Shown: positions 1-60,946, counted from the first letter of the whole stretch. The stretch is DNA of 63,965 nucleotides, filler included, from Psammoneis japonica (GCA_008632985.1; 4 parts of 4 records of this genome joined end to end with filler, not necessarily neighbours in it); one strand, 5' to 3'. The notes: generated from the letters alone by a model not told the origin. Translations and numbers: made by a program.

Positions 1-745
1 TTATACGATGACACGGAAAATGGCTCTGGTTCTGGATCGGTTCGATTGTTTCAATACAACCGCGGCTCCTCATCCTGGAACCAACTCGGACAAACACTCA
101 TTGGCCAAGCTGCTGATGATCGTTTTGGACGTTCCGTTTCCTTGAATGCGCAGGGAACCATTGTCGGCGTTGGAGCTGATGAAATGATTCGGGTGGAAAC
201 ATGCGGGTCAAGTGTCGGTGTTTGAATACAATTCTGCCTCGTCAAAATGGGATCCGTTGGGCAATCCAATCAATGGCCAAGTCGATTATGGTTGGTTTGG
301 ATGGTCGTTTCTCTTGACGACAGCGGTTTGATCGTGGCCGCGGGTGCACCTTTTGGCAACAACGAGAGAGTTTTGGTTTATTCGTACGACCGCTCGACTT
401 TGACATGGAAGCAACGTGGCCAAACTCTCTTGACACAACAGCCTGGTGATGATTTTGGTTACTCAGTGTCGTTGAGTGGCAATGGAAATGTCTTGGCGGT
501 CGGAAGCATTTGGCATGACGTCAATGGATCAAGCAACGTGGGTCAAGTTCGAATCTTTCAGCACGACAGCAATGCAGACGAATGGAAGCAAGTTGGAAAT
601 CCTTTAAATGGCAAGGCTGAGAAGATTTTGGATTCCGTTTCCTTGTCGGCCGACGGAAGCGTCGTTGGAGTTGGTGCACGGCTTGGCTGATGTCAATGGC
701 GACGATTCCGGATCCGCGTACGCATTCACGGTAAATGACAATTAG
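1..745 (+). CDS. 3' end (FG-GAP propeller repeats) of an upstream copy of the MLKL-like kinase receptor; 5' part lies outside the window
   Basis: Near-identical to ~14720-15471. Encodes FG-GAP-like repeats (DDRFGRSVSL, DDFGYSVSLSGNGNVLAVG) and ends ...SAYAFTVNDN with TAG at 743-745. Small indels break the frame. Confidence 0.8.
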
Positions 746-3474: not shown

Positions 3475-4400
3475 GATTCGAATGGGTCGAATTTCATTCC
3501 CGAGTCGTCGTGACTCGTTCATACGGTGCGTGTCTAGTGTTTTCCAATCAACCAGTTCATGCTTGTACCAGTCCGGGAATCCGTCATGTTGATGGGTGAA
3601 GTGGATTTCGCTGTCGCCATGAAACCTGCATGCGGCAACCGCGGCATTCATGCCGGTTCCGCATCGCTTCCAGTCGCGGTGCCGCCACATGCCTGCAACT
3701 CTTTTTTTGTGGGAGCCTTGTTTGCCTGTAAAGCGCTGCTCAATCAGAGCTGTCATTGGACGTGCAACCGATTCGTTTGGGTTGCCGGGGCCGTGTGTGT
3801 CGTCACAGTGAATGTCCGCATACCGCGTAAGTCGGAGCTGATCGCCTCGCATCATGGTCTGGCTGCAGCTGGTCCGTGCCACCGCCAAGTTCTTCCAAGC
3901 TGCAGACTGAACAACGCAGTTCAAAATTTTGTCCTCAGCAATGCGAGATAGAGCATCCGCAGGCAGCTTGTCGTGAGCTGATGCAAACTCAGTGAGCAAA
4001 TTTTGGGTGCATCGCTCCTTGTGTGCCACCAGAAGCGACGTCAACTGCCTCTGATCTCACAACGAATTTTGGATTGGGAGGTTTGTGCTCCTCCCAAGAT
4101 GAACAATGCTGCAGTGACCAAATGACATGCTTGGCCGACTTTGGCGTGACGTCTCTTTTTGACACTGCTTCCAAGAAGTGCCGGTCGACCTGGTCTCGCG
4201 TCAAGTGAGGCGGCCCCGACAGAGCCGGCGATTCGTCCACCCATCTTTTGCATGCACTCCACTCAGTGACAAAGTGCCATCCACCTTGGGTGGTGTGATG
4301 GTTTGGGCCAACAAGTCTCCCATGGAGACTAGAGACACCATCGTGTGGGTCTCTTCTTTGCATTTGTGACAGCCTCGAGGGATCGTTTTTGGGGTGCACC
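3475..4400 (-). mobile_element. Degenerate Crypton-like / NDC10-II-type tyrosine-recombinase-related element
   Basis: Minus-strand frames give HLTRDQVDRHF, MMRGD and GMWRHRDWKRCGTG...CRF. These resemble the RH(K/R)D..C..G..A...RF motif of NDC10-II/Crypton proteins once Y->H/C changes are reversed. Strongly TpA-depleted. Confidence 0.5.
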
Positions 4401-4784
4401 CACCTCGCTGTCAAAAGAAAAGAGGTTTTTGAAATCAAACGCTCACTTGTGGCGGTCGACAAGTGGAGTCGTTTCGAAACATGTTGACATTCGAGTGGGA
4501 AGAAAGAACATTTCGACAAGTGGATTTTGTGTCATGCCCTGTTCTGAAGGTTCTTGTCTTCACCAACCACAGGCCTGTCCGGGGTCCGGGAACCGGTTCC
4601 AGGGGTGGTTCCGGCGCCGGCCTCCTGCGGGCAGGAACTGCTGAGGACTCCCCCGGATGGCTCGGTCAACCCGTGATGTCAGGGGAAAGCGTGCCCCCCA
4701 ATCAGCGGTGGTTGTTCCTGCCAACCGAGGTCGCGCGACCCACCACTCGAGACTTGTGACTCAAAGTCACGAGCGCTCGTGCCA

Positions 4785-6100
4785 TTGAGACGACTCTCTC
4801 TCTCTCTCTCTCTCTCTAGAGTGGCCAGTGGCCTGCTCTCGCTCTCTCTGGAGGCAGAGCCAAAGCAGAGAACAGAGAGCAGGTCCAGAGAGCAGAGGCC
4901 ACTGCTGTTGTTGCCATGGTGACTGCTGTTGCCATCTCTGCTGCTGTTGTGGCTCTGCCTCCTCTGCCAGTTTGCTGCTCTGTCATTGCACGAGCACTCA
5001 CGAGCCATCGCATCCATGCCAAGCTCATCTCATCACTGTGTTGCATTGGTGACCACTCATTGCAGCTTTTCAAAGGCCACACTTGACAAAAACCAGAGCT
5101 GTGCACTTTGTGAAGAAATGCTGCAGATGTTTGGTTGGCCAGCTGCAGATCCGCAGCACACCAATGTGAAACATGATGCTGGTCAATTTCGGTTGACCCA
5201 GAGTTTTCAAACAAGCTGCCCATCACTTTTTTTTGCCTGGCTGCCCCCAACTCTGACTTTTCATTTTTGAGTCTTGCTGCAGTTGCTGGGTTTGTTTTGC
5301 ACGTGGCTCCTTCAGTGTTTTGCCAGTGCTTTGTCAAATCTTTCATGCCAGCCCTTGTTGGTGAGTTTCCTGCTTGAGCCTGGTTGGAGATCCGGGATTC
5401 CAGGAAACACAGCCTTGTGCACTTGCAGCAAAATGTCCAAATCTTGATTTGTTGTGCCATTTGCACATGCCTTCCAAGCAGTGTCACATCATCCACCCAC
5501 GACTTCTTTGTTCTTGAATCTCAACCCACAAATTTGCCAGCATGTCTTGTTCTCTGATTTTTCACTTCAGCACAGCTCTCTCCAACTCAAAACACTTTGC
5601 TGAGCACATCACAGTTGCTCTGTTGGAAGTCTCAAAAGGTCCCCTGGTGCCAAAGCTGGTGCAGCATCTCTTGCTTGGGCAATGGCAGCCCAGAGCTGGT
5701 CTTCAGCCATCTCATCACACTCGGTCACCACTGCAAGTCCAATCTCTTTGGCCAAAACTTTCTCTTGCACCACCACCTTTTTGCACTTCAACACAGTGGG
5801 TGCCAGAAATCTGGCTGCTGGCGGGTGGTGTCGCGACAAAGCAAAAGGCATGCTCCAATGTTTTGTGCACAGAGCTTCTGTTGTGATGGTCCAAAAAATG
5901 ACAAATGTTCAGACACCCATGACACCCTGTCAATGTCATCGTCAGCTCCCGCGGGTTTTGACAAGTTCTCCGTGCAGTGTCAGTTGTCACTGCGGTGATG
6001 GTCTGTGCGCTAATCCGGAGCACATCACCTGCCATGCCAATTTCGAATGATTGCGGTTGATGATTCGTTCGATTCGAGTCCGGGTTCTGAGCTCACCGAT
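4785..6100. mobile_element. Unclassified TpA-free repeat or TE remnant starting at a (CT)n tract
   Basis: No TA found by eye from 4819 to 6010; CpG also low. Overlapping spurious Cys/His-rich ORFs. No recognisable domain. Confidence 0.45.
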
Positions 6101-6264
6101 CATGGATTTACCGCACTGGATGGAGCCGCGGCCGTCGCAAAACAACACCATGATGCCTCTTTACCTCTCTTGTTGATACTACTGTAATTGCATTGTCATC
6201 ATGGCTTCGTGGTATACAGAAACAACAATATTGTCGTCGCTGTTGTCTGCTGCTTACGTCATAA

Positions 6265-8776
6265 CAACACCGATGCCGTTCAAGCATACCGGTCAAGCCC
6301 GGAAGCTTTTTCCAATTTCTAACCTATCTCTACGCGGAACGCAAGTTTATTCTTGTCATCTTGATTCACTTTGTTTGTACCATGGTAATTTGGGGTGAGT
6401 AGAGTATATTGTATGATTGAGTTGTGTGTGTGTGTGTGTGTGATTTGCTATACTCATCTCAAACATACCGCCGCACCTCTATACCGTACTCCCTAACATA
6501 ATACTACAGCACACTTCTTTGTGGTCAAGTTTCATCAACAAGAAAACAAAGTACCCGAGGACGCAAATCGATATTGGTGGAAACGTCTCGCTCCGCCACT
6601 CGAGTTTGGAGCCATGCATGCCATTTTGTTTCAAATGGCATTCCTACCGCTCACCATGGCTCGGCTCTCCATTGCGGCAGCCTCCAAAACATCTCTCAAT
6701 ACGTACTTTCCCTTCAACAAGAGTCAGCGCATTCATATTCATTTGGGATACGTCTTTGGGAGCATTGTTGTGATTGCCACGATTTTCTTTTTTGCCTTTT
6801 TTGGATTGCTTTGTTCCGATGGCGAACAAGCGTTTTGTGACAAGTTTACGTCGGAAATCATGATTACGGGGTACATTACCGTGGCCTTTGTCTTGATTAT
6901 CCTCTCTACATCATTCTTTCGAGATTACATGCCATACGAAGTCTTTTATGGCATTCATCATTTGGTATTTGCCATGTACCTGGTGGTCTTGTTGCATACG
7001 ATCGATATCAACGTTCGAAAGGACGGACAGAATCGGAGTCAAACCTTCAAGTGGTTTTCGGCGACACTCTTGTACTACGTTTCGGACCGCCTTGCCATGC
7101 GGCTTAATCATCGCTACAAGACGCGTGTCCTTCAAGCCAAAATTGTCAAGAATACAAAGTCGAGTATGATTTTGCTACAGCTCAGACGTCCGTCCTTGTT
7201 TCAATACGAACCGGGTCAGTACGCGCATCTTCGGTTTCCCGACATTGATTCGTATTGGCATCCCTTTTCGATTGGAAGCAGTCCGGATTCCAATGTGTTG
7301 GAGTTTTATATTGAAGTCTATGACGACAAATCGTGGACGGGAAAACTCTGTCAATTGTTGGGTAATGACGTTTGCCACGAGAATGTTCGTGTTCAAGTCA
7401 TGGGCCCGTACGGAACACGCTTGGGTGATACTCATCGATACTCTCATGCCATGGCTATTGGCAGTGGTTCTGGTGTGGTTCCCATCTTGGGTCTCTACAA
7501 AAAGCACATTTGTCAGCTACTCCGATTGGACCCACAAACATACTTTGAAGAACAAGCTCAAATGCATTCGCAACTCAAGCGTATGGAACGAGCGCGAGAA
7601 CAAACACGTGGATCGTGGCTCAACTACTTTTTGCGGTGTTCACCTCAACCGACCCGACACGAAATGGGCGTCATTTCTGGAATCTTTGATTCGAGCAATG
7701 CCGAAACCAAGGACTTGCGAGAGGCGGCCAAGCGTGCGTCCTTACCGATTTATGGCGTCAATATATTGATGCAACTGGTTGTCTTGGGAGTAATCATGTT
7801 GGGATTGACCTTGTCGTGGAATACCATGCCGTTTGAACTCTACGACGGCATGCGAGAAGTGTTGATTGTTGGCTCGATTGTGTTTCAAGGCGCCTTTGCC
7901 GTTGTGTCGATTGGATACTGGGACCGCGGCTCGTTGCTGGCGTATGTTGATGTTTTGATTGTCATTGCTGGTGCCGTGGCCAATTGGTATTGGTTTGAGT
8001 ACGACAAGTGGGCCAACTTTGAAGCGGCAGAGCATGTGTATTACATCTTGTTGTTTGGATACATGACGGCGCGGTTGTGGCATTCGGCCGTCAAGCCACG
8101 ATACTGTTCATTGCGGAGCAGCTTGGAACGACAACACACGAGTTCAGCATTGGACAAGCTGCACTTTGTTTGGATTACGCGTTCATCCACCAACGTTTTG
8201 AAGATTGCACCCACAATCATGCAAGAATGGAATGCGCTTGTTGCGGCGTGGGGATTGGAGAATGCCGTCAAGGTGTGTCAGGTTTCTATTTACGTTACCG
8301 ACAAGGACAAGGCCGCCGTGGGCTATCTCAAGCAGGAGTTGTCCAAGACGCCCCTTTACAAGCAAGGTGCATTCCATTATGAGCGTCCTGACATTTCCAA
8401 ATTGTTGGAAGAGCATGCCATGGAACGCATTTATGATGAGAGTCGTCCCACCTCGTCTACCCTCTTGTGCTTTTGCGGATCTCCCAAGCTATCATCAGTG
8501 ATAAGCAAAGCCAAGACCATTGTGGATATATCAACAATGATTACGGGAAACAAGTACCACCAAATGGATTTCGTTTCCGAGAGTTACAGTGCCTACACGA
8601 AGCGTCCGTCGTCGTCGAACAATAGCAACGCGGTAGTTGTCGCTGCCTCGGCAAAGACGCCACAGTACAGTGTCTTTATGGATTCACCCAGCTTTATGGA
8701 GAAGCAACATTCGGGAGATGAATTGGATACGACGGATACCTTTGAAGACAATGAGGACCACCTTATTTCCATTTGA
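6265..8776 (+). CDS. NADPH oxidase / ferric reductase-like flavocytochrome (red-algal/diatom RBOH type); intron 6395-6509; true start not resolved
   Basis: His-bearing TM helices (RIHIHLG; IHHLVF...LLHTID), FAD motif WHPFSI, GPYG, NADPH motif AIGSGSGVVP and C-terminal FCGS...ESY. About 4 extra hydrophobic helices sit inside the NADPH domain. The GTGAGT(6395)...CTAAC...CAG(6509) intron joins upstream exon PGSFFQFL...HFVCTMVIW in frame. Confidence 0.85.
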
Positions 8777-9069
8777 GACTACAGAGGATCGTGGACGGCA
8801 CGCAACTTTAGAATTGTTTTAGTTTACCTTGCGCATTTATAATTTATAACTACCTCAGCATACATTGATTGTCTTCAGCCTGTGATTCATAACTACCCCA
8901 GCATGCATTGATCGATTTCAGCTTTTGTGTGTTAGTCTTTTCAATTGAGAACTAGATGCATTTACAATGCCTCCAGTTCCATTTGAGATGTGCATCTGGC
9001 TTTTAGAGGCACATGCTGGGAAGCCATTTTGCTTCATTTTTCCTTGAGCAACTTCCACAAGAAGCTCGA

Positions 9070-9912
9070 AAATGCCCAACCTGGCCTGATTGCGAAACTT
9101 CTGCGTGCAGCCAAGATGGAAGACTGCAATGGATCTCCAACTCCTGCCCTTCCCATCTCTGTTGGCAGTGACACAGAAGGCCACCATTCGATGAACCTTG
9201 TGACTGCCGATCTGTGGTTGGCATGTTGATGCATCCAGTGCCCAACAGCTGTCTGGACATCATCTGCACTGCCCATCAATTTGCTTGGTTCTCCTGTGCT
9301 CCAAAAGCCTCCCATGCCATTGCTGTCCAATGCATTCTTTGACACTTGAAGGACACGACTGACAAAGGGCTCATCCCAGCCCCAACCATGGATCAACGAC
9401 TTGATTGTCATGTTGATGCCAATTTTGTGGGTCTCTTCCATGTTGAGGATGATCAGGTTCCTGCTTCTGTTAAGTCTCGCACAGGATGTCCAAGCTGCAG
9501 CGGCCCCTCATGGTTTTGTCTCTGCTGTTGGAGGCAGAGAATGTTTCTCTCCCAATCAATGCATGGCCTCATTCCCCTTTGTGAGATCTTGAAGGAAATC
9601 AATGCACATGCTTTTGGTCAGCTGGACAGGAAGAATGGCATCACCACACATGCCAAGGCTTTCCAACCCACCAACGATGGAACCAATTCACCCCCATTGC
9701 CTCTGCCAGCATCAGCTTGCTCACACGCCAAAACTGTCCCCACAAACCAAGCACACCATCATGCCTTGTCACCAGTTTTGTGCTGAAGTTGAGGCTTTGG
9801 AGATCAAGATTGAGCCTGTCAGCTCTGCTGCACAGCTTGCTGACCAGTTTGCTGGGGGTTTGACTGCTGCTGATCTGTTCTGCACTTGTTGTGGGGCCCT
9901 CATGGGCTGGCG
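9070..9912 (+). mobile_element. Ty1/copia (CoDi-like) RT/RNase H remnant, heavily mutated
   Basis: QPGLIAKLL...TPALP...CRSVVGMLM...LDCHVDANF...KSRTG...QLADQF...LMGW. Same family as 62737-63965. Both TpA and CpG are depleted; the depleted tract spans ~8990-10640. Confidence 0.85.
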
Positions 9913-11032
9913 ACTGTTTGTCCTGCTTCTCTTGATTTTGCAGGCAGGCTGGGAGAAAATGAGTCAATTTGCTGCTGTTCTGTTGCTTTCCCCAAACAAC
10001 AATGGCAAGTCTGCCACCCGTGGCAGAATGTGCAATCAAGGAATTGCTGCGGCAACATGAAGAAAACGCAGCAAGCCACCAAGGAAGAAGAGTGTCCGTC
10101 AACGGCTGTTTTGAAGGTCCTGCTTCACTTGAGCTGCACCAATGTAAAAGTGATGCAGGCTTCACACTTTTTCATCTTGCAGTCTTCTTTGCAAACATCC
10201 TTTTGAAATGCCTGGCACCACGTGCAAAGCTTTTGGGTCCATCAGGAATGAACCGCTCTCACAGCTCTTTTTGTGCTCGATCGACGACAATGGGGCGAAC
10301 AACCCAAGGTCCAAATTGTCATGGGTCTTTTTGGCAAATGCAAATGACTGTGCACCGGAGTGGAGTGGCTTTCCATGAGACAACAAACGCCAACGTTGGA
10401 AAACAAGGGTGGGTCTTTTTTCAACAATGGCAGACTTGACAACATGCATTGATTGACCAAGGTGGCAAAACACGCCACGTGTGCACCAACAACAGCATCA
10501 TCATTTCTGCTCGACAACAACAGGGGATGATTTCGATTGGTGTTGTTGGTTTGGTTGTTGATGTTGAAGTGAAGTGCGGCATTGGCGGCCTCTCTTTTTG
10601 GCACGCACCGGCCGGCTGGCACGCACCGGTGTGACTGCACCTATGTGGGTGACAGACGGACGGACCAACCGGATGGCCACATAGTACGCCCGCCTAAAAC
10701 CAACATGCGTGCAGCGCAACGCTTGAACCGCACGATCGTTCATCGCGGGAATAAGCATGCAAGCAGTTGGAAGTTGAAGTTATTGGTTATTGTTCTGTTG
10801 TTCTTCTGTTATCCCATTGCTTCATTTAATTCGTTCCTGCCCTTGTCTCAAGGGCAAGCGTCGCTGTTCTACAGCATAATCGATCTCGCCTTGTTGCCAT
10901 TGTGTTGGTGCCTGTCTCCTTTGCAGTTGCGTTTCTGCTGAGCAGAGGAACCACCTCTTGTCTCGCGTCTCACCGATCCGGACTCCGCAATTTTGATTCT
11001 GCATCTCGCAGAAAGACACAAAAACAGCAGAC

Positions 11033-14000
11033 ATGCTTGGTGACATCATCGCCGGCATAGAAGCGGCTTTCAACTTGTGCGCCGTGATTTACAAGAGCTA
11101 TGAAACGGTAAAGATCATGCCGGATTTGGCCAAGACCCTCAAGGACCGCGTACAAATATTCAAACCGCGACTCGAGAAACTCGTTAGGGAATGCCAGGCA
11201 TCAGGCACATCACAGAAGGTAATTCCGCTTTTGCATATTCAAAGCTTGAACACGGTGTTGGGTGACATTCAAAAGTACATGAAGAAGCTTCAGGATGACT
11301 CTAAACTACGAAAGTTGAAGAATCGGGTGTTTTATCAGAGTCTCCTGGATGAATATGAAGAGCTCAACACCAAGCTCAATCGTTGTCGGGATGATCTTAA
11401 ATTTGACTTTGAGTTTGATGTCGATGCCGAGAGAAAAGCGTTTGAGAATGAAACGAAAGGTCTCCTACAGTGTCTTATTGATCATCAGGGTCAAGAGCAC
11501 CGTATTCTGCGCGAGATGCTTTCTGAAGTCCTCAGGTTCATCAAGGGTCACAAAGCGCTAAATCTCAATGAACAAAACAGTCCTGCTATTGTGACCGCTT
11601 CTGCATTTATGGACAATAGTGACTCTGCAACTCTACGAGCTATCATTGATGAGCAGAGTGCCATTGAATATGAACTCCCGCCATCGGAGGTCGTTTTAGA
11701 AGATATCGAGCTTGGAGCAGGCACCTTTGGTGTCGTATACAAGGCAACATACAATAATCAAGATGTTGCCATCAAGAAGCCTCATCGTCGAGAATCGGAT
11801 GTTTTGGCGGAACTCATGAACCAAGAAAGATGCAGCGGCTCGCCTTTTGTTGCCCTTATACACGGCTTTGTTTATGTCAATGAGATTCGGTCTATTGTTA
11901 TGGAGTTCATGCCATGTGGTACTCTAGGAGGTCTACTACGCCACGCAATGGGAAGGGATGGGATTGTGTCCATCAGCAAGGACCAGCAAAGTCTCGAGGC
12001 CACACTAGCTGCGTACACAGTAATTCAGCTCTTTCACAAGGTTAGTGAGGGAATGCGATTCATCAGTCAACGTAATGTGATACACCGCGACCTCAAGCCG
12101 GAGAATATTCTTCTAAGTCAAACTCTTGACCCCAAGATTGGGGATTTTGGGTCTGCTCGAGAGCTCGCAAACAGCGCGACTCACCTTTCGGGATCCGCTG
12201 CTGGATCTGTATACTATATGGCTCCGGAAGTATTGACGGTCCTTAAAGCTGACAAAGGACAATACTCCTATCCTGCCGACCAGTACAGTTTTGGAATGAT
12301 CATGGTTAAATGCTGCCATGGTCTGTTTGGTCAGCAGTCTCGTGTGGACCGGCACGACGAGGACGCGCCTCTTCCAGAGATTCCTCTTCCTGATGCGTTC
12401 CCTTCTTCGGTAACAGATATCAAGAACAATTGCATTGCTTCAGACCCATTGATGCGCTATGGTCGTGGCACCGCTTCAGAATCACTTCTATCAGAAGCGT
12501 TCGAGAAGGTACTGCAGCAATTGGATAGCTCTGTCTCTTATCCAAAGATTGATGGGTATTATGGTGACGACGTTGCAGAGGTGGCAAATATTGCTCGGAT
12601 CGCTTTTGAGAGTAAGACGCATCGTGGGGTATCTGGCATTATAACTTCGTCCTCATCGCTGATCCCAACACCCGGCATGGAGAAGAAGCCATTGAAGGAC
12701 GGAGAGCCGAGCTACTCCACCGCGTCCTTGTCACATTCGTCTACATCCGCGAAAGAACCGGTTCCTCGTGCAAGGAAGGAGAAGAAAAAGAAGAAACCGA
12801 CTGCTGATCTCCGAGTTCAAAAAGAGCAAAGTGCATCGTCTCGCAGAAAAAAGCGTCCTGATCTCCGAGTTCAAAAAGAGCAAAGTGCATCGTCTCGCAG
12901 GAAAAAGCGTCCAACTCGTTCCGGCAGCTCGAAAGAAAAAGGACAACCAGCGCAAACTGGATCATCAGCAATTGCTTCAAGTGGTCACAATGACAGTGCT
13001 GAAAGAGAACGGGGCGTTAAGGACGAGACGCAAAATACAAGCGAATATCATAGCCGCACCAGTCGGGAGAGGTCCGTCAACAGCACAGCCACAGCAAGCC
13101 TTGCGCTATCGGCTGCCGCGTATGTCGCGCCAGATGCTTTCACAGTGACGTCTGGAGACCAAGCTGCACAACCCGAAGAACCGGACAGAGATGACCGCGT
13201 CACAGTTACTTCAGATTCCAACAAAGTGATGGAGATGGATCCAGCACAAGTCGTAGAGGCGGTTCCTGCTACTTCTGATGGTGGTGGTGGCGGACAGAAT
13301 GAGAAAGCAAATGACACAACGCGAATTAGTGACGAGGATGAGAATGCTGAAGATGAGCTTCATCGCAAGTACCTTCGCAAACGATTCATTATTCCGGGCG
13401 TTGTATTGTTGGCGATTGCAGCGATTGTCAGTATTGTTGTTGCAGTAAAGCCGTGGGACACAGGTGGTGGAGGGAGCCCCACTTTCCCCCCTACTGTTTC
13501 CCCTACTGTTGCACCCGCCACAGAGACTACCGAACGAGCCACCGGTTTGGTCATGAGTTTGATTGGTATTGATACCGAGTTTGATGAAAATGATTCCGAG
13601 TTGTGGGCTACGGCAACCAAAGCATTCGTCGAGGATTATTACAACACTCGTCGTCGTCGTCGTGGCCTTGGCTATCTCCAGACCCCTCGTATATTACAAG
13701 TATCGAATATACAGAATGTCGAGACGTCTTTGGATGTTACTAACACCATTGTGGTTGAAGATGGCAATGGTGGAGAACCATCCCTTCGAGTCACATACAA
13801 CCAAGCTATCACGTATACTTTTGAAGACAGCAGCAACGAAAACATTTCCATGGATGCCATGGTGACCGAACCATTCAAGACGTCTGATAGTCGATCGGCC
13901 TACCAAAAAGACCTCCAGGCGGCGGGCACCAGTGCTGGAAGCAACATTTTTGACAATTTGATTGGCACTAGTGAAGTTTCAACCAGCACAGCTGCTCCGA

Positions 14001-15471
14001 CACCGTCACCTACAAATAGCATTCCAATTACGGAACTACCAACACAAGATCCCGCGTCGCCACCGTCGACTCCGGGTCCAACGACTCTCAATCCAACATC
14101 GTTGCCGACGACAAACCCTACTCCTCGTCCAACTCTCAATCCAACACCTCGTCCTACACTCAATCCAACGCCTCGTCCAACTCTCAATCCAACTCCACGC
14201 CCCACTCCATCACCAGCTCCAACAACACCCAATCCCACCAGTGGTGGTGGCAGCAGTAGTTTGCCGCCAAACGGTCCATGGAATCCCGTTGGACAAACTT
14301 TGCACGGCAAGGCTGCAGATGATTTTTTTGGCGATTCCGTGTCCTTGTCTCGTGATGGCAGGGTCATGGCTGTTGGAGCGGAGCAATCTTCTTCCAATCC
14401 CGGCTATGTTGTTGTGCAACGATACAATCCAAACACCCAACAATGGGAACAAATTGGCCAAGAATTGATTGGACAAGCCGGCGGTGACGAGTTTGGAGAG
14501 TCTGTTTCGTTAAATGGCGATGGCACGATTCTTGCAGTTGGAGCGGATGACAATGACAGTGGTGGAACAAATGCCGGTCACGTTCGTGTGTTTGAATACA
14601 ACTCGGCATCGGATCGTTGGGTCCAACTCGGCAGCGACATTCTTGGACAAGACGCTGGTGATTTGTTTGGTTTTCCGTGTCGCTTTCGGATGCGGGAGAC
14701 ATTCTTGCCGTGGGAGCGTTACGGTACGATGACACGGAAAATGGCTCTGGTTCCGGATCGGTTCGATTGTTTCAATACAACCGCGGCTCCTCATCCTGGA
14801 ACCAACTTGGACAAACACTCATTGGCCAAGCTGCTGATGATCGTTTTGGACGTTCCGTTTCCTTGAATGCGCAGGGAACCATTGTCGGCGTTGGAGCTGA
14901 TGGAAATGATTCGGGTGGAAACAGTGCTGGTCAAGTGTCGGTGTTTGAATACAATTCTGCCTCGTCAAAATGGGATTTGTTGGGCAATCCAATCAATGGC
15001 CAAGTCGTTAATGGTTGGTTTGGATTTTCGGTTTCTCTTGACGACAGCGGTTTGATCGTGGCCGCGGGTGCACCTGGAACAAGCAACGAGAGAGTTTTGG
15101 TTTATTCGTACAACCGCTTGACTTTGACATGGAAGTCAACGTGGCCAAACTCTCTTGACACAACAGCCTGGTGATGATTTTGGTTACTCAGTGTCGTTGA
15201 GTGGCAATGGAAATGTCTTGGCGTCGGAAGCATTGGCATGACGTCAATGGATGATCAATGCGGGTCAAGTTCGAATCTTTCAGCACGACAGCAATGCAGA
15301 CGAATGGAAGCAAGTTGGAGATCCTTTAAATGGCGAGGCTGAGGAAGATCGTTTTGGATTCCGTTTCCTTGTCGGCCGACGGAAGCGTCGTTGGAGTTGG
15401 TGCACATTTGGCTGACGTCAATGGCGACGAGTCCGGATCGGCGTATGCATTCACAGNTAAATGACAATTAG
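11033..15471 (+). CDS. Type-II membrane protein: MLKL/HeLo-like four-helix bundle + protein kinase + TM + Pro/Thr stalk + FG-GAP beta-propeller
   Basis: Kinase motifs intact: GAGTFG, VAIK, HRDLKPEN, DFG, YMAPE. Single TM after a basic cluster (RKRFIIPGVVLLAIAAIVSIVVAV), then PTPRPTLN repeats and FG-x-SV-SL...G..LAVGA repeats. The frame shifts near 14670 and again after 15130; stop TAG at 15469-15471 by comparison with 743-745. Confidence 0.85.
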
Positions 15472-18400
15472 AAAATGTATTTTGCGCTACATCCTCTTGT
15501 ATCAATCACACTGTATTTTTTGTAGTTTAGTTCTTTGGTAGACCGTACATTTGCGTCGTTTGGCTCGTGTCATTGTGTGCTGTTTTTCGCGTTTGTTCCA
15601 AAAATCAAAAAAGTCTGTCTGTCGTGCGATTCCGCTAGTCTATCACGAACCACACATCACACACACACACATCACACATCGGCTCGCGGTCTTGAACAAC
15701 CATGACGCTAATCAACAGCACTACGAATCATCATGTAACAACAACAACAACGATGTCATAACGTTTGGAGGATTATCCGCCTCGTGAGTAGAACACATCA
15801 ACAATGAGAGTTGTTTTGAACAAACTGTGTTGTTGTTGCATGAGTCGAATGCTGCCGCTTGTGAAAATCATTGACACGCTGCTGCTGCCACGCACGCTAC
15901 AATATTGTTGTTGTACATGTCTACGCACTCTCATACTCATCACTCCTTCTCTTTCACACACTCTCTCTCTCTCTCTCTTGACTACACGTAATGATTCACT
16001 TAAGTGTTGTCAAGACACACAAGTCCTTTGAGGGCTTGACTGCAGCTACCGGGGAGCATGCCCACAGAGTATGGAATCAGCAGCAGAGCCGGAACCAGTC
16101 AATCAAAAGTCAAACAACTGTCTCAGCAAGCACTCATAGGCATGGTGGAGCGAAGGTATTGTACGAGTATACTGGATGCAACCAACGAACGATTTCTGTG
16201 ATGCGGTTCACGGTCGCTTCTGTTCGGTTGTGCTGCTGGATGAACGCATTGTTGCTGCCACTGCTCCTCCTCCTCCAAAGGACAATAGCGAGTCGCTCGT
16301 GGCATGCGCAGCGAAAGCTCCTTTTTTGTTGGCTGTATCCTTGATGAATNNNNNNNNNNNNNNNNNNNNNNNNNNNNNNNNNNNNNNNNNNNNNNNNNNN
16401 NNNNNNNNNNNNNNNNNNNNNNNNNNNNNNNNNNNNNNNNNNNNNNNNNNNNNNNNNNNNNNNNNNNNNNNNNNNNNNNNNNNNNNNNNNNNNNNNNNNN
16501 NNNNNNNNNNNNNNNNNNNNNNNNNNNNNNNNNNNNNNNNNNNNNNNNNNNNNNNNNNNNNNNNNNNNNNNNNNNNNNNNNNNNNNNNNNNNNNNNNNNN
16601 NNNNNNNNNNNNNNNNNNNNNNNNNNNNNNNNNNNNNNNNNNNNNNNNNNNNNNNNNNNNNNNNNNNNNNNNNNNNNNNNNNNNNNNNNNNNNNNNNNNN
16701 NNNNNNNNNNNNNNNNNNNNNNNNNNNNNNNNNNNNNNNNNNNNNNNNNNNNNNNNNNNNNNNNNNNNNNNNNNNNNNNNNNNNNNNNNNNNNNNNNNNN
16801 NNNNNNNNNNNNNNNNNNNNNNNNNNNNNNNNNNNNNNNNNNNNNNNNNNNNNNNNNNNNNNNNNNCTGTACGAACTATATAACAACAATGACACGGATG
16901 ATTATGACTTTGGAAATGTCGATATCTTTGTTTCGACCATTCCATCGACACCCGTCAATATTAACGATGACAACGACAAGAAGGATGACGAAGAGTATTA
17001 GTAGTATCAACAATGGCACTAATAACAATGGCGCGGTGGTGGAAATATCATTTCATCCTATGGAGACTTGAAAGCACGATTTGCCGATAAACTCAACAAA
17101 AAAAAAGGGACCGCTTGGCTGCTTGTGGGATGTCTTTGTTCCTCCCTAATACTACTGCGAATAATAAGGACAAGGACAATGAAAACTACAATGACCTTGG
17201 AGATGCCGATAGAGGAAGGGGTTCCTTTGATACCACATGCGTGGCGGAATATAAAAATGTACAATTGCAAGAACGAAACTGAATCCTCGAGACGGTTGGG
17301 AAGCGATGGAGGATGAAGTCGTGAATCATGAGCGCTGCTCCGACTCGACTGTTGTTGCAAATAATATATTGTCGGCCTATACTGTGCAACCCGTCTGGAA
17401 GACACTCTCTGCTATGGGGTGTTTGTCTTGGAATCGGTAGAGCCTGAACCATGGTCTCTCAAAAATTCAAACTCCTGTCTCGGCAAACAATGCAGGCACG
17501 GTGGAGCAAGCGTACTGGATGCAACGAACGATTCGTGACGTGGTCTTGGAATTTCTGCGCTCTCTTCATTTCGCCAGATGCTTTTTTTGGATTTCCAAGA
17601 AACTCTCTAGACTGACTGCTCTCCACTCTCTAGCTGTAGCTCTAGAGATCCCTACATAAAGAGTAACACGTCCCCAGCTGCTAGTAGAGCCACTCTCTCA
17701 CATGACAGTACAACTTGCAAGAACGAAACTGAATCCTCGAGACGGTTGGGAAGCGATGGAGGATGAATTCATGAATCATGAGCGCTGCTCCGACTCGACT
17801 GTTGTTGCAAATGATATATTGTCGGCCTATACTCTGCAACCCGTCTGGAAGACACTCTCTGCATTGCTAAGGAGTAGTTGTCTTGGAGTCGGTAGAGGCT
17901 GAACCATGGTCTCTCAAAAATTCAAACTCCTGTCTCGGCAAACAATGCAGGCACGGTGGAGCAAGCGTACTGGATGCAACGAACGATTCGTGACGTGGTA
18001 TTGGAATTTCTGCGCTCTCTTCATTTCGCCAGATGCTTTTTTTGGATTTCCAAGAAACTCTCTAGACTGACTGCTCTCCACTCTCTAGCTGTAGCTCTAG
18101 AGATCCCTACATAAAGAGTAACACGTCCCCAGCTGCCAGTAGAGCCACTCTCTTGCACGACAGTACAATAGAGAGAGAGAGTGCTTTGGATTTTAAGAGA
18201 GATAATAGAGGACGCACACAGCATGCTATGCTAGCTAGCTGCTTTCCGTCCCAGCTTCGTGGCACCACGTGTAAAAATTAACCCCCCATTTTTAACCAAA
18301 TGCCCACCTCGATCGACTGGCAGTAACCAGATACGAAGTTCAGCACACTTTTGGGGGCCTAGAGAATGGGGGTGAACGTTAGTTACTAACTAACCAATCA

Positions 18401-21412: not shown

Positions 21413-23922
21413 CAACACCGATGCCGTTCAAGCATACCGGTCAAGCCCGGAAGCTTTTTCCAATTTCTAACCTATCTCTACGCGGAACGCAAGTTTATTC
21501 TTGTCATCTTGATTCACTTTGTTTGTACCATGGTAATTTGGGGTGAGTAGAGTATATTGTATGATTGAGTTGTGTGTGTGTGTGTGTGATTTGCTATACT
21601 CATCTCAAACATACCGCCGCACCTCTATACCGTACTCCCTAACATAATACTACAGCACACTTCTTTGTGGTCAAGTTTCATCAACAAGAAAACAAAGTAC
21701 CCGAGGACGCAAATCGATATTGGTGGAAACGTCTCGCTCCGCCACTCGAGTTTGGAGCCATGCATGCCATTTTGTTTCAAATGGCATTCCTACCGCTCAC
21801 CATGGCTCGGCTCTCCATTGCGGCAGCCTCCAAAACATCTCTCAATACGTACTTTCCCTTCAACAAGAGTCAGCGCATTCATATTCATTTGGGATACGTC
21901 TTTGGGAGCATTGTTGTGATTGCCACGATTTTCTTTTTTGCCTTTTTTGGATTGCTTTGTTCCGATGGCGAACAAGCGTTTTGTGACAAGTTTACGTCGG
22001 AAATCATGATTACGGGGTACATTACCGTGGCCTTTGTCTTGATTATCCTCTCTACATCATTCTTTCGAGATTACATGCCATACGAAGTCTTTTATGGCAT
22101 TCATCATTTGGTATTTGCCATGTACCTGGTGGTCTTGTTGCATACGATCGATATCAACGTTCGAAAGGACGGACAGAATCGGAGTCAAACCTTCAAGTGG
22201 TTTTCGGCGACACTCTTGTACTACGTTTCGGACCGCCTTGCCATGCGGCTTAATCATCGCTACAAGACGCGTGTCCTTCAAGCCAAAATTGTCAAGAATA
22301 CAAAGTCGAGTATGATTTTGCTACAGCTCAGACGTCCGTCCTTGTTTCAATACGAACCGGGTCAGTACGCGCATCTTCGGTTTCCCGACATTGATTCGTA
22401 TTGGCATCCCTTTTCGATTGGAAGCAGTCCGGATTCCAACGTGTTGGAGTTTTATATTGAAGTCTATGACGACAAATCGTGGACGGGAAAACTCTGTCAA
22501 TTGTTGGGTAATGACGTTAGCCACGAGAATGTTCGTGTTCAAGTCACGGGCCCGTACGGAACACGCTTGGGTGATACTCATCGATACTCTCATGCCATGG
22601 CTATTGGCAGTGGTTCTGGTGTCGTTCCCATTTTGGGACTCTACAAAAAGCACATTTGTCAGCTACTCCGATTGGACCCACAAACATACTTTGAAGAACA
22701 AGCTCAAATGCATTCGCAACTCAAGCGTATGGAACGAGCGCGAGAACAAACACGTGGATCGTGGCTCAACTACTTTTTGCGGTGTTCACCTCAACCGACC
22801 CGACACGAAATGGGCGTCATTTCGGGAATCTTTGATTCGAGCGATGCCGAAACCAAGGACTTGCGAGAGGCGGCCAAGCGTGCGTCTTTACCGATTTATG
22901 GCGTCAATATATTGATGCAACTGGTTGTCTTGGGAGTAATCATGTTGGGATTGACCTTGTCGTGGAATACCATGCCGTTTGAACTCTACGACGGCATGCG
23001 AGAAGTGTTGATTGTTGGCTCGATTGTGTTTCAAGGCGCCTTTGCCGTTGTGTCGATTGGATACTGGGACCGCGGCTCGTTGCTGGCGTATGTTGATGTT
23101 TTGATTGTCATTGCTGGTGCCGTGGCCAATTGGTATTGGTTTGAGTACGACAAGTGGGCCAACTTTGAAGCGGCAGAGCATGTGTATTACATCTTGTTGT
23201 TTGGATACATGACGGCGCGGTTGTGGCATTCGGCCGTCAAGCCACGATACTGTTCATTGCGGAGCAGCTTGGAACGACAACACACGAGTTCAGCATTGGA
23301 CAAGCTGCACTTTGTTTGGATTACGCGTTCATCCACCAACGTTTTGAAGATTGCACCCACAATCATGCAAGAATGGAATGCGCTTGTTGCGGCGTGGGGA
23401 TTGGAGAATGCCGTCAAGGTGTGTCAGGTTTCTATTTACGTTACCGACAAGGACAAGGCCGCCGTGGGCTATCTCAAGCAGGAGTTGTCCAAGACGCCCC
23501 TTTACAAGCAAGGTGCATTCCATTATGAGCGTCCTGACATTTCCAAATTGTTGGAAGAGCATGCCATGGAACGCATTTATGATGAGAGTCGTCCCACCTC
23601 GTCTACCCTCTTGTGCTTTTGCGGATCTCCCAAGCTATCATCAGTGATAAGCAAAGCCAAGACCATTGTGGATATATCAACAATGATTACGGGAAACAAG
23701 TACCACCAAATGGATTTCGTTTCCGAGAGTTACAGTGCCTACACGAAGCGTCCGTCGTCGTCGAACAATAGCAACGCGGTAGTTGTCGCTGCCTCGGCAA
23801 AGACGCCACAGTACAGTGTCTTTATGGATTCACCCAGCTTTATGGAGAAGCAACATTCGGGAGATGAATTGGATACGACGGATACCTTTGAAGACAATGA
23901 GGACCACCTTATTTCCATTTGA
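21413..23922 (+). CDS. NADPH oxidase / ferric reductase, copy 2; intron 21543-21655
   Basis: The 751-aa frame matches copy 1 except for C->S, M->T and N->D. Confidence 0.85.
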
Positions 23923-26177: not shown

Positions 26178-29100
26178 ATGCTTGGTGACATCATCGCCGG
26201 CATAGAAGCGGCTTTCAACTTGTGCGCCGTGATTTACAAGAGCTATGAAACGGTAAAGATCATGCCGGATTTGGCCAAGACCCTCAAGGACCGCGTACAA
26301 ATATTCAAACCGCGACTCGAGAAACTCGTTAGGGAATGCCAGGCATCAGGCACATCACAGAAGGAATTCCGCTTTTGCATATTCAAGCTTGAACACGGTG
26401 TTGGGTGACATTCAAAAGTACATGAAGAAGCTTCAGGATGACTCTAAACTACGAAAGTTGAAGAATCGGGTGTTTTATCAGAGTCTCCTGGATGAATATG
26501 AAGAGCTCAACACCAAGCTCAATCGTTGTCGGGATGATCTTAAATTTGACTTTGAGTTTGATGTCGATGCCGAGAGAAAAGCGTTTGAGAATGAAACGAA
26601 AGGTCTCCTACAGTGTCTTATTGATCATCAGGGTCAAGAGCACCGTATTCTGCGCGAGATGCTTTCTGAAGTCCTCAGGTTCATCAAGGGTCACAAAGCG
26701 CTAAATCTCAATGAACAAAACAGTCCTGCTATTGTGACCGCTTCTGCATTTATGGACAATAGTGACTCTGCAACTCTACGAGCTATCATTGATGAGCAGA
26801 GTGCCATTGAATATGAACTCCCGCCATCGGAGGTCGTTTTAGAAGATATCGAGCTTGGAGCAGGCACCTTTGGTGTCGTATACAAGGCAACATACAATAA
26901 TCAAGATGTTGCCATCAAGAAGCCTCATCGTCGAGAATCGGATGTTTTGGCGGAACTCATGAACCAAGAAAGATGCAGCGGCTCGCCTTTTGTTGCCCTT
27001 ATACACGGCTTTGTTTATGTCAATGAGATTCGGTCTATTGTTATGGAGTTCATGCCATGTGGTACTCTAGGAGGTCTACTACGCCACGCAATGGGAAGGG
27101 ATGGGATTGTGTCCATCAGCAAGGACCAGCAAAGTCTCGAGGCCACACTAGCTGCGTACACAGTAATTCAGCTCTTTCACAAGGTTAGTGAGGGAATGCG
27201 ATTCATCAGTCAACGTAATGTGATACACCGCGACCTCAAGCCGGAGAATATTCTTCTAAGTCAAACTCTTGACCCAAGATTGGGGATTTTGGGTCTGCTC
27301 GAGAGCTCGCAAACAGCGCGACTCACCTTTCGGGATCCGCTGCTGGATCTGTATACTATATGGCTCCGGAAGTATTGACGGTCCTTAAAGCTGACAAAGG
27401 ACAATACTCCTATCCTGCCGACCAGTACAGTTTTGGAATGATCATGGTTAAATGCTGCCATGGTCTGTTTGGTCAGCAGTCTCGTGTGGACCGGCACGAC
27501 GAGGACGCGCCTCTTCCAGAGATTCCTCTTCCTGATGCGTTCCCTTCTTCGGTAACAGATATCAAGACAATTGCATTGCTTCAGACCCATTGATGCGCTA
27601 TGGTCGTGGCACCGCTTCAGAATCACTTCTATCAGAAGCGTTCGAGAAGGTACTGCAGCAATTGGATAGCTCTGTCTCTTATCCAAAGATTGATGGGTAT
27701 TATGGTGACGACGTTGCAGAGGTGGCAAATATTGCTCGGATCGCTTTTGAGAGTAAGACGCATCGTGGGGTATCTGGCATTATAACTTCGTCCTCATCGC
27801 TGATCCCAACACCCGGCATGGAGAAGAAGCCATTGAAGGACGGAGAGCCGAGCTACTCCACCGCGTCCTTGTCACATTCGTCTACATCCGCGAAAGAACC
27901 GGTTCCTCGTGCAAGGAAGGAGAAGAAAAAGAAGAAACCGACTGCTGATCTCCGAGTTCAAAAAGAGCAAAGTGCATCGTCTCGCAGAAAAAAGCGTCCT
28001 GATCTCCGAGTTCAAAAAGAGCAAAGTGCATCGTCTCGCAGGAAAAAGCGTCCAACTCGTTCCGGCAGCTCGAAAGAAAAAGGACAACCAGCGCAAACTG
28101 GATCATCAGCAATTGCTTCAAGTGGTCACAATGACAGTGCTGAAAGAGAACGGGGCGTTAAGGACGAGACGCAAAATACAAGCGAATATCATAGCCGCAC
28201 CAGTCGGGAGAGGTCCGTCAACAGCACAGCCACAGCAAGCCTTGCGCTATCGGCTGCCGCGTATGTCGCGCCAGATGCTTTCACAGTGACGTCTGGAGAC
28301 CAAGCTGCACAACCCGAAGAACCGGACAGAGATGACCGCGTCACAGTTACTTCAGATTCCAACAAAGTGATGGAGATGGATCCAGCACAAGTCGTAGAGG
28401 CGGTTCCTGCTACTTCTGATGGTGGTGGTGGCGGACAGAATGAGAAAGCAAATGACACAACGCGAATTAGTGACGAGGATGAGAATGCTGAAGATGAGCT
28501 TCATCGCAAGTACCTTCGCAAACGATTCATTATTCCGGGCGTTGTATTGTTGGCGATTGCAGCGATTGTCAGTATTGTTGTTGCAGTAAAGCCGTGGGAC
28601 ACAGGTGGTGGAGGGAGCCCCACTTTCCCCCCTACTGTTTCCCCTACTGTTGCACCCGCCACAGAGACTACCGAACGAGCCACCGGTTTGGTCATGAGTT
28701 TGATTGGTATTGATACCGAGTTTGATGAAAATGATTCCGAGTTGTGGGCTACGGCAACCAAAGCATTCGTCGAGGATTATTACAACACTCGTCGTCGTCG
28801 TCGTGGCCTTGGCTATCTCCAGACCCCTCGTATATTACAAGTATCGAATATACAGAATGTCGAGACGTCTTTGGATGTTACTAACACCATTGTGGTTGAA
28901 GATGGCAATGGTGGAGAACCATCCCTTCGAGTCACATACAACCAAGCTATCACGTATACTTTTGAAGACAGCAGCAACGAAAACATTTCCATGGATGCCA
29001 TGGTGACCGAACCATTCAAGACGTCTGATAGTCGATCGGCCTACCAAAAAGACCTCCAGGCGGCGGGCACCAGTGCTGGAAGCAACATTTTTGACAATTT

Positions 29101-29857
29101 GATTGGCACTAGTGAAGTTTCAACCAGCACAGCTGCTCCGACACCGTCACCTACAAATAGCATTCCAATTACGGAACTACCAACACAAGATCCCGCGTCG
29201 CCACCGTCGACTCCGGGTCCAACGACTCTCAATCCAACATCGTTGCCGACGACAAACCCTACTCCTCGTCCAACTCTCAATCCAACACCTCGTCCTACAC
29301 TCAATCCAACGCCTCGTCCAACTCTCAATCCAACTCCACGCCCCACTCCATCACCAGCTCCAACAACACCCAATCCCACCAGTGGTGGTGGCAGCAGTAG
29401 TTTGCCGCCAAACGGTCCATGGGATCCCGTCGGACAAACTTTGCACGGCAAGGCTGCAGATGATTTTGGCGATTCCGTGTCCTTGTCTCGTGATGGCAGG
29501 GTCATGGCTGTTGGAGCGGAGCAATCTTCTTCCAATCCCGGCTATGTTGTTGTGCAACGATACAATCCAAACACCCAACAATGGGAACAAATTGGCCAAG
29601 ATTTGATTGGACAAGCGGACGGCGACGGTTTTGGAGAGTCTGTTTCGATAAATGGCGACGGCACGATTCTTGCGGTTGGAGCGGATGAAAATGACAGTGG
29701 CGGATTGAATGCCGGTCACGTTCGTGTTTTGAATACAACTCGGCATCGGATCGTTGGGTTCAACTCGGCAGTGACATTCTTGGACAAGACGCTGGTGATT
29801 GGTTTGGTGATTCCGTGTCGCTCTCGGACGCGGGAGACATTCTTGCCGTGGGGAGCG
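26178..29857 (+). CDS. MLKL-like kinase receptor, next copy; several 1-nt indels; 3' end truncated by the gap
   Basis: Split into ORFs 26178, 26389, 27360 and 27590, which together match 11033-14710. The indels may be assembly errors or pseudogenisation. Confidence 0.75.
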
Positions 29858-29957
29858 NNNNNNNNNNNNNNNNNNNNNNNNNNNNNNNNNNNNNNNNNNN
29901 NTTAATTAATTAANNNNNNNNNNNNNNNNNNNNNNNNNNNNNNNNNNNNNNNNNNNN
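29858..29957. other. Artificial contig linker N44-TTAATTAATTAA-N44
   Basis: Six-frame-stop 12-mer at 29902-29913 inside exactly 100 nt. The same construct occurs three times. Confidence 0.95.
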
Positions 29958-59828: not shown

Positions 59829-60402
59829 GTTTCAAGGAAAACAAACATGTGTTTTCAAGGAAAACAAACATGTGGTTTCAAGGAAAACAAACATGTCATT
59901 TCAGGGAAAACAAACATGTCATTTCAAGGAAATCAAACATGTCTTTTCAAGGAAAACAAACATGTCGTCTCAAGGAAAACAAACATGTCTTTTCAAGGAA
60001 AACAAATGTGTGTTTCTAAGGAAATCAAACATGTCTTTTCAACAAAAAAAAACATGTCGTTTCAAGGAAAACAAACTTGTGTTTTCAAGAAAAACAAACA
60101 TGTGGTTTCAAAGAAACCAAACATGTCGTTTCAGGGAAAACAAACATGTCGTTTCAAGGAAAACAAACATGTCGTTTCACGGAAAACAAACATGTCTTTT
60201 CAAGAAAAACAAACATGTCTTTTCAAGGGAAACAAATGTGTCTTTTCAAGGAAAACAAACGTGTCATTTCAGGGAAACCAAACATGTGGTTTCAAGGAAA
60301 ACAAACATGTCTTTTCAAGGAAAACAAACATGTTTTTTCAAGAAAAACAAACATGTTGTTTCAAAGAAAACAAACATGTCTTTTCAAGGAAAACAAACGT
60401 GT
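59829..60402. repeat. 23-bp satellite, consensus ~CTTTTCAAGGAAAACAAACATGT, ~25 copies, running into an N gap
   Basis: Direct head-to-tail repetition without unique spacers. Confidence 0.95.
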
Positions 60403-60946
60403 NNNNNNNNNNNNNNNNNNNNNNNNNNNNNNNNNNNNNNNNNNNNNNNNNNNNNNNNNNNNNNNNNNNNNNNNNNNNNNNNNNNNNNNNNNNNNNNNNN
60501 NNNNNNNNNNNNNNNNNNNNNNNNNNNNNNNNNNNNNNNNNNNNNNNNNNNNNNNNNNNNNNNNNNNNNNNNNNNNNNNNNNNNNNNNNNNNNNNNNNNN
60601 NNNNNNNNNNNNNNNNNNNNNNNNNNNNNNNNNNNNNNNNNNNNNNNNNNNNNNNNNNNNNNNNNNNNNNNNNNNNNNNNNNNNNNNNNNNNNNNNNNNN
60701 NNNNNNNNNNNNNNNNNNNNNNNNNNNNNNNNNNNNNNNNNNNNNNNNNNNNNNNNNNNNNNNNNNNNNNNNNNNNNNNNNNNNNNNNNNNNNNNNNNNN
60801 NNNNNNNNNNNNNNNNNNNNNNNNNNNNNNNNNNNNNNNNNNNNNNNNNNNNNNNNNNNNNNNNNNNNNNNNNNNNNNNNNNNNNNNNNNNNNNNNNNNN
60901 NNNNNNNNNNNNNNNNNNNNNNNNNNNNNNNNNNNNNNNNNNNNNN

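Follow-up and report, generated by a model that had tools for sequence, protein, structure and literature searches.

Four-helix-bundle (4HB) executioner domains of the MLKL, HeLo/HELL and RPW8/CC-R kinds are known from animals, fungi and plants, and in the cases compared here they belong, according to the source excerpts available, to soluble proteins acting downstream of separate sensors. Vertebrate MLKL is represented by the structures PDB 4BTF and 2MSV (as named in the accessible part of bioRxiv 10.1101/681015). For the plant proteins, the same part of that preprint reports that HeLo domain and brace of AtMLKL1 and AtMLKL3 are sufficient for cell death once oligomerised, that the resting state of plant MLKL buries the HeLo domain, and that the immune function of the AtMLKLs can be uncoupled from cell death, the AtMLKLs being associated with microtubules. 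Wheat Pm13 and its Poaceae cluster, in the available portion of PMC10951266, combine an MLKL_NTD with a kinase predicted to be active. On the side of the receptors, the transmembrane kinases of oomycetes are all of TKL type, and the receptor kinases of plants and oomycetes are type I, as given in the extract of PMC3019232. Here we describe a kinase gene from Psammoneis japonica (GCA_008632985.1), located in a stretch of DNA of 63,965 nucleotides (the window; four parts of the genome's records joined by filler), the product of which is, judged from its sequence, probably a single-pass receptor kinase of type II that carries an MLKL_N-like domain.

The open frame of the gene extends over 3.6 kb without interruption, from the N-terminal domain through kinase, linker, transmembrane (TM) helix and stalk into blade 2 of a C-terminal propeller (Table 1). 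The N-terminus of the protein is well defined because an in-frame stop lies 12 codons 5' of the first Met in the frame listing and because this Met is aligned with the start Met in both relatives found, P0003 and the P0004 cluster. The kinase domain scores 124.9 bits with Pkinase and 108.4 bits with PK_Tyr_Ser-Thr, both above cut-off, and its closest solved counterparts are B-Raf and Raf-1 (E 1.4e-20), with 507 distinct chains matched at E <= 1e-10. All catalytic motifs are present (GAGTFG228, VAIK245, HRD351 with DLKPEN, DFG371 and APE397); the kinase looks active and of RD type, unlike the MLKL pseudokinase. The composition of the long linker was counted over its final 264 residues (aa 521-784); the relative P0006 shows no conservation of this linker. 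Its polybasic clusters (KEKKKKKP and the RRKKRP repeat, 12776-12913) could bind acidic lipids or serve as nuclear-localisation-like signals. The TM helix carries the basic flank HRKYLRKR on its N side and is followed by about 600 aa of stalk and propeller. The sole other segment above the hydropathy cut, aa 1-19, is not read as a signal peptide because it holds D4 and E10 and lacks a basic n-region. The topology is thus predicted to be N-in/C-out, type II, from the positive-inside flank, the lack of a signal peptide and the logic of the domain order. The initial annotation had proposed this inverted topology, along with a motif-complete kinase, a long linker, one TM helix with basic residues on its N side and no signal peptide; each of these elements is indeed present, the orientation as a prediction.

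The N-terminal helical domain of ~125 aa, which is followed by a helical connector, is likely a divergent member of the MLKL_N/HeLo/RPW8 four-helix-bundle superfamily, as suggested by profile and feature matches. In a Pfam search against 24,736 models, PF22215 (MLKL_N) was aligned over aa 13-122 with profile positions 5-108 of 142. Queries confined to aa 1-128 and 1-150 gave 27.4-27.5 bits (E 2.6e-6; curated cut-off 27 bits), aa 1-175 gave 26.2 bits, and E ranged from 2.6e-6 to 1e-4 across query cuts. MLKL_N alone stands out: the next helical families, EPS8_2nd, Mitofilin and DUF4709, have E >= 0.007, and SesA, the N-terminal domain of fungal NLRs, is matched weakly over aa 6-60 (E 0.05). The MLKL_N match of P0003 has the same register (aa 16-113 with profile positions 8-102; 14.2 bits, E 0.032). 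In a search by language-model features, the nearest clusters to the window domain are fungal (0.94 and 0.93) and plant (0.91) and carry MLKL_N, RPW8 or MCAfunc; its neighbours score 0.94 to 0.88 and belong to the families MLKL_N, RPW8, MCAfunc and DUF7792; seven of the matches fall within the MLKL_N set, and 188 of 256 features are in common. The N-terminal domain of P0006, 45% identical, retrieves the same families, with oomycete MLKL_N clusters first (0.87).

Helices are predicted across aa 1 to ~215, in agreement with the helical N-terminal ~125 aa of the initial annotation. Both AlphaFold models, which are of low confidence and used for secondary structure only, place helices at ~2-57, 63/64-87, 98/100-121 and 130-172. 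Four predicted helical stretches fall inside aa 2-121 when a break at Pro30 is set by eye, and one low-confidence model has connector helices at 130-150, 154-172, 184-194 and 198-212. At this level of secondary structure, the helix lengths and the position directly before the kinase, via at least two connector helices, fit MLKL, and the helix pattern would suit a 4HB with brace. Acidic residues are interspersed in the hydrophobic first helix (mean Eisenberg hydrophobicity 0.34). In the window protein the bundle has a pI of 9.1 and the connector one of 4.7, a basic/acidic contrast seen in this protein only. At the junction of bundle and brace lies the family's most conserved motif, L-x-FDF-x-FD..AER-x-AFENETKGL, as revealed by two three-sequence alignments.

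The gene family is real and unusual, with at least three known members. A phmmer search with aa 1-210 against 1.84 billion representatives returned only two proteins at E <= 0.001, namely P0003 (46% identity), a 310-aa fragment, and P0004 (45%), which heads a cluster of seven that includes the 786-aa members P0006 and P0010; all are public metagenome or assembly proteins. The FDFxFD..AERxAFENETKGL motif and the start Met are common to the window protein and its relatives. Searches by profile at the longer and near length settings recovered P0004 and P0003 only, and a word-based search with aa 1-215 at near lengths gave none at E <= 0.001, yet it also missed P0004, which lies in that length range. 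A scan of metagenome contigs yielded 541 pattern matches and no confirmed relative. Because the searches gave so few homologues, the alignments used for folding held only three to four sequences. P0006 and P0010 have, in one open reading frame (ORF), the N-terminal domain, kinase, a short linker, the TM helix, a Pro/Thr stalk and a Cys-containing ectodomain; that of P0006 shows one LRR-like motif by eye, unconfirmed by Pfam, and no FG-GAP repeat. Since P0006 and P0010 share the module of N-terminal domain, kinase and TM helix with the window protein and do not share its FG-GAP repeats, the cytoplasmic module is kept while the ectodomain differs, and the family appears to swap its ectodomains much as receptor repertoires do. 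The catalytic loop of P0004 and P0006 reads HCD (non-RD), as compared to HRD in the window kinase.

The ectodomain of the window protein comprises a juxtamembrane region, in which no Pfam family was found at E <= 0.01 (aa 806-996), the stalk and the propeller. FG-GAP_2 (PF14312) scores 38.6 bits in the main frame, the frame that follows gives 45.2 bits (cut-off 23), and the units start at 14327, 14492, 14666, 14845, 15019, 15179 and ~15351, with a spacing of ~170 nt. Six of these units come from a motif scan, the seventh from the frame listing and tblastn. The seven tandem repeats and the scores above cut-off assign the region to the FG-GAP_2 propellers, the frame breaks described below being the caveat. 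The RRRRRGL site, the Pro/Thr stalk and the roughly seven FG-GAP blades claimed at the outset were thus all recovered.

The same annotation had assumed a single open chain up to position 15471, and this does not hold for the assembly as it stands. The open frame ends at 14671; blades 3-7 (to ~15464) become readable only across about five frame shifts, at ~14673, 15135, 15222, 15250 and 15345, with a TGA at 15239-15241 in one frame used for the propeller, one N at 15457 and a stop after blade 7 at ~15462-15464. What stands of the one-chain order is the part from the N-terminal domain through kinase, TM helix and stalk to blades 1 and 2, present in one ORF, and P0006 repeats the order of N-terminal domain, kinase and TM helix; what does not is the frame-broken stretch of blades 3-7. 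Introns were considered as the cause of the breaks and ruled out, because the repeat consensus runs on unbroken with zero residues missing.

The assembly was compared with contigs built independently from public reads, in two runs (X1 and X2) of one sample that is probably the source; three public runs are listed (one sample, one study), none recorded as RNA, and the third holds almost none of the stretch's words. The read contigs have zero differences from the assembly over 10900-12833 and 12871-13664. At 15135, nearly all of them have one base deleted (depth with the change 207.8/207.8 in X1 and 1690.2/1724.8 in X2), and after 14670 a part of them has a T inserted (116.2/328.7 and 211/515.7). 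Insertions at 15222 and 15250-15255 occur in a minority only, and in the stalk there is a 6-nt length difference at 14252. The breaks in the propeller frame are likely to be, for the most part, errors of the draft assembly, because the read contigs contradict the break at 15135 almost throughout and that at 14670-14673 in some cases; a decaying 3' end is the other possibility. The word depth over 14396-15456 is about 10 times that of the gene's 5' part, with many variant contigs, and this type of FG-GAP_2 repeat therefore represents a large multi-copy family in the organism. The assembly across the propeller part is probably a blend of family copies.

The gene is part of a tandem array of ~15-kb units (1048-15775 and 15776 to ~30600) of near 100% identity and a spacing of 15138-15151, which over most of their length differ by single-base indels only; N runs are found at 16350-16866 and 29858-29957. 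The array could be a recent tandem duplication or a duplication in the assembly, for example of haplotypes. The second copy of the kinase gene (copy B) is identical to the first (copy A) over the first ~3.4 kb, except for four single-base deletions, which lie in the N-terminal domain and kinase part and to which the read contigs give no support. Substitutions between the copies are found only in the propeller part, from 14282 on, with an abrupt start, and amount to eight synonymous and eight non-synonymous codon differences, too few to judge selection on the copies. At 14673 copy B carries one more base and so stays in frame there. The junction of stalk and propeller is common to both copies.

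When these elements are put together, a mechanism can be proposed in which binding of the propeller to a ligand or a surface would cluster the receptor, and the clustered kinases would trans-phosphorylate. The phosphorylation would then free the N-terminal bundle from brace and kinase, the effect that it has in MLKL, and the bundle, kept near the inner leaflet by the long basic disordered tether, could act on its own plasma membrane in cis. The consequence might be an ion or Ca2+ flux, or outright permeabilisation, and the output a defence or cell-death signal. We put forward this reading as a whole, a receptor kinase whose MLKL-type bundle acts on its own membrane with defence or death as output, as a tentative proposal that has a real chance of being right and a somewhat greater one of being wrong. 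Its most far-reaching form, a surface receptor with built-in executioner in which a swappable ectodomain drives its own kinase to release an MLKL/HeLo bundle that is tethered to the same membrane and makes a lesion in it in cis, ion-conducting or lytic, is in our estimation unlikely. If that form were true, the protein would be a one-polypeptide version of the pathway of death receptor, RIPK and MLKL. It would also be the first described case of MLKL-type machinery, for cell death or Ca2+ signalling, from a photosynthetic stramenopile.

Several observations weigh against a membrane-acting bundle. The MLKL_N score straddles the cut-off (22.3 bits for the full protein, 25.5 bits for aa 1-200), and MLKL_N is matched neither by P0004 (E <= 1) nor by P0006 (E <= 0.01). 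Feature-search scores of ~0.9 are, by the tool's own note, also reached by 4-10 of 100 shuffled proteins. No solved MLKL, HeLo or RPW8-type chain was found at E <= 10 with phmmer and a three-sequence profile against the PDB, where the sequence matches of the domain are at chance level only (RBP2, E 1.2; EzrA, E 0.041; and others). The AlphaFold2 models reach a pLDDT of 52.6 (three sequences) and 49.2 (four sequences) and show helices 1-2 as one long helix, not a closed bundle. Fold comparisons with the low-confidence models gave generic helical matches: Foldseek matched 14-3-3 only (best E 0.64), and the best in VIA-align was a designed 3-helix bundle (Z 11.6, at a helical noise level of ~13), with the wheat resistosome CC domain (rank 25, Z 8.6) and NINJ2 (rank 12, Z 9.2) among the entries within noise. 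The predicted self-association of two copies of aa 1-175, in which the alignment was unused, is 0.01 against a mark of 0.32 and is evidence neither way. The relatives do not keep the basic charge of the bundle (pI 6.9 and 5.3), and frame breaks interrupt the propeller part of the assembled gene. Moreover, a 4HB need not kill, because plant MLKL immunity is separable from death in what is accessible of bioRxiv 10.1101/681015. The resemblance to MLKL that had been seen by eye therefore holds in part: MLKL_N is the sole outstanding helical family, and the feature neighbours are MLKL_N, RPW8 and MCAfunc, but the four-helix fold itself is putative, the models being of low confidence.

Such observations raise the question of whether the domain is related to MLKL_N at all. 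It could be a lineage-specific helical or coiled-coil domain whose MLKL_N match arises by chance or composition, the protein being simply an unusual membrane kinase. A score at or below the cut-off that varies with the query cut, a relative without the match, the lack of a solved-structure match by sequence and of a confident fold, and a profile left very thin by only two related clusters among 1.84 billion representatives would all be explained. We nonetheless consider this origin quite unlikely, for the E of 2.6e-6 to 1e-5 against all models searched is more than 1000-fold better than that of any other helical family, P0003 as second family member repeats the match in register, and two independent members retrieve the same clan by their language-model features. 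The position before brace and kinase is, in addition, that of MLKL_N in MLKL and, by the portion of its description available, in Pm13. The main rival to a membrane-acting bundle leaves the ancestry aside: the N-terminal domain, MLKL_N-like or merely helical, would be a module for regulation, docking or oligomerisation, the propeller would sense matrix, surface or contact, as integrin-like FG-GAP domains do, and the output would be substrate phosphorylation, possibly including the adjacent NOX-like oxidase. The complete kinase motifs make signalling by phosphorylation alone feasible, and the FG-GAP_2 ectodomain is confirmed. The separable immunity and microtubule association of the AtMLKLs, as contained in the accessible part of 10.1101/681015, likewise point in this direction, as do the co-duplication of the NOX-like ORF with the kinase gene and the positive bundle charge not kept among relatives. 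Gene neighbourhood in eukaryotes, however, is weak evidence of a functional link, and the hydrophobic first helix and the neighbour clan (MLKL_N, RPW8, MCAfunc, SesA) are mostly tied to membrane action; on balance we regard this non-lytic alternative as somewhat unlikely.

The integrity of the locus itself is a separate matter. If it were a pseudogene copy in decay, or if members of the multi-copy FG-GAP family had been assembled into a chimera, the full chain would be absent from the cell. Consistent with this are the roughly five frame breaks and the in-frame TGA within the last ~800 nt, the four single-base deletions of copy B in its N-terminal domain and kinase part, the numerous paralogues implied by the ~10-fold word depth of the propeller, the abrupt beginning of A/B differences at 14282 and the N runs of the draft. 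The long frame of 3.6 kb is nevertheless open without a break, the read contigs agree with the assembly over both intervals in the 5' part and correct the break at 15135 nearly always and that at 14670-14673 in part, copy B keeps the frame at 14673 by its extra base, both copies have the same stalk-propeller junction, and P0006 is open across N-terminal domain, kinase and TM helix. We therefore hold a pseudogene or chimera to be very unlikely. A receptor kinase with a bundle acting on its own membrane accordingly stays our preferred, if tentative, account.

Table 1. Features of the kinase gene, its protein product and the tandem units around it (window coordinates; aa, residues of the window protein)
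Feature	Position	Strand	Details
Kinase gene, ORF	11033-14866	+	ORF call; true frame 11033-14671, 1213 aa
N-terminal helical domain, MLKL_N-like putative four-helix bundle, hydrophobic first helix	11033..11398	+	aa 1-122; Pfam PF22215
Brace-like helical connector	11399..11677	+	aa 123-215; alignments and predicted helices
Protein kinase domain, TKL type	11708..12463	+	aa 226-477; Pkinase E 5e-36, PK_Tyr_Ser-Thr E 5.1e-31
Cytoplasmic low-complexity linker with polybasic clusters	12464..13384	+	aa 478-784, 307 aa; basic, Ser/Ala/Arg/Lys-rich
Perfect 2 x 18-aa tandem repeat in linker, unit end RRKKRP	12806-12913	+	55-nt self-match
Single TM helix	13385..13447	+	aa 785-805; mean Kyte-Doolittle up to 2.97 over 19 aa
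Extracellular juxtamembrane region	13448..13978	+	~175 aa, no known family
RRRRRGL site	13649-13669	+	aa 873-879
Pro/Thr/Ser-rich stalk	13979..14260	+	aa ~983-1076; P+T+S 0.62-0.70 in 40-aa windows
Seven FG-GAP_2 repeats, putative seven-bladed extracellular beta-propeller	14273..15464	+	~5 frame breaks, one N
Copy B of kinase gene	26178..29857	+	next ~15-kb unit; ended by N run
FG-GAP repeats, 3' end of another copy or a paralogue farther upstream	7..678	+	tblastn with propeller part, E down to 5e-21
NOX/ferric-reductase-like ORF, 720 aa	6614-8776	+	Ferric_reduct, FAD_binding_8, NAD_binding_6
NOX/ferric-reductase-like ORF, second copy	21760-23922	+	tandem-unit duplicate

In each repeat unit the NOX-like ORF precedes the kinase gene by 2.3 kb and is co-duplicated with it (Table 1). 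A retro-element fragment at 9388-9786 had been suspected by eye, and Pfam gave nothing for it. Elsewhere in the window, minus-strand ORFs at 50673-54442 and 58477-59136 contain multiple DUF7507/DUF11 repeats and PT-rich segments and probably encode large repeat proteins of the cell surface; in tblastn, the PT stretch of these ORFs weakly matched the kinase gene's stalk. A 729-aa ORF on the plus strand (33978-36167) has an IBR domain (E 7.7e-14) and is likely an RBR-type ubiquitin ligase, and a further plus-strand ORF at 59847-61160, adjoining N runs, has a sub-threshold match to LbR_Ice_bind (24.5 bits as compared to a cut-off of 30).

Our study has importance in suggesting how the cell-death toolkit might reach beyond the groups in which it is known. 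If sensor, active kinase and bundle do reside in one membrane chain, that toolkit would be extended to algae of great ecological weight, and the protein would offer a very compact system to study 4HB release by phosphorylation as well as a concrete candidate for surface immunity and programmed cell death in phytoplankton, both of them poorly understood. Even if the N-terminal domain is only regulatory, a receptor kinase of reversed, type II topology whose ectodomains can be exchanged would be of interest to students of receptor evolution. In searches of the MLKL literature, including that on diatoms and oomycetes and judged mostly from abstracts, neither a membrane-anchored MLKL_N kinase nor an MLKL-like protein of a stramenopile alga was found.

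Comparison with the described systems shows resemblances of the window protein to several of them. With vertebrate MLKL it shares, in the same order, an N-terminal helical bundle of ~125 aa, whose fold is here putative, a brace and a TKL-type kinase fold. Vertebrate MLKL, however, is a soluble pseudokinase activated by RIPK3, whereas the window kinase is motif-complete and followed by a TM helix (aa 785-805) and a large ectodomain. MLKL proper is excluded because the kinase looks active and the protein is membrane-anchored. The initial premise that animal and plant MLKLs are soluble pseudokinases was itself incomplete, given the predicted active kinase of Pm13 in the accessible text of PMC10951266. 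Like Pm13, as far as its description is available, the window protein has a putative MLKL_NTD-type domain, brace and active-looking kinase, although its N-terminal domain is related only at a level that is borderline in Pfam. Pm13 and AtMLKL1-3, in the descriptions at hand, come without TM helix or ectodomain, and the AtMLKLs are pseudokinases with a Ser-rich tail. By the same partial descriptions, the active kinase is not new, because Pm13 provides the precedent; new are the membrane anchoring and the ectodomain.

The type I receptor kinases (LRR-RLKs, RTKs) resemble the window protein in their extracellular ligand-binding repeat domain, single TM helix and cytoplasmic TKL-type kinase. They differ in the order of these parts, which is reversed here: the kinase is N-terminal of the only TM helix, there is no signal peptide, the ectodomain is C-terminal, and the MLKL_N-like N-terminal domain comes in addition. 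An arrangement of cytoplasmic N-terminal kinase, one TM helix and C-terminal extracellular sensor is that of the bacterial Hanks-type kinases PknD and PknB, the sensor of PknD being a beta-propeller. These kinases share the topology logic with the window protein, but they come from prokaryotes and lack a helical bundle at the N-terminus, and the relationship is one of analogy only. The kinase described here is most similar to eukaryotic TKL kinases of RAF type.

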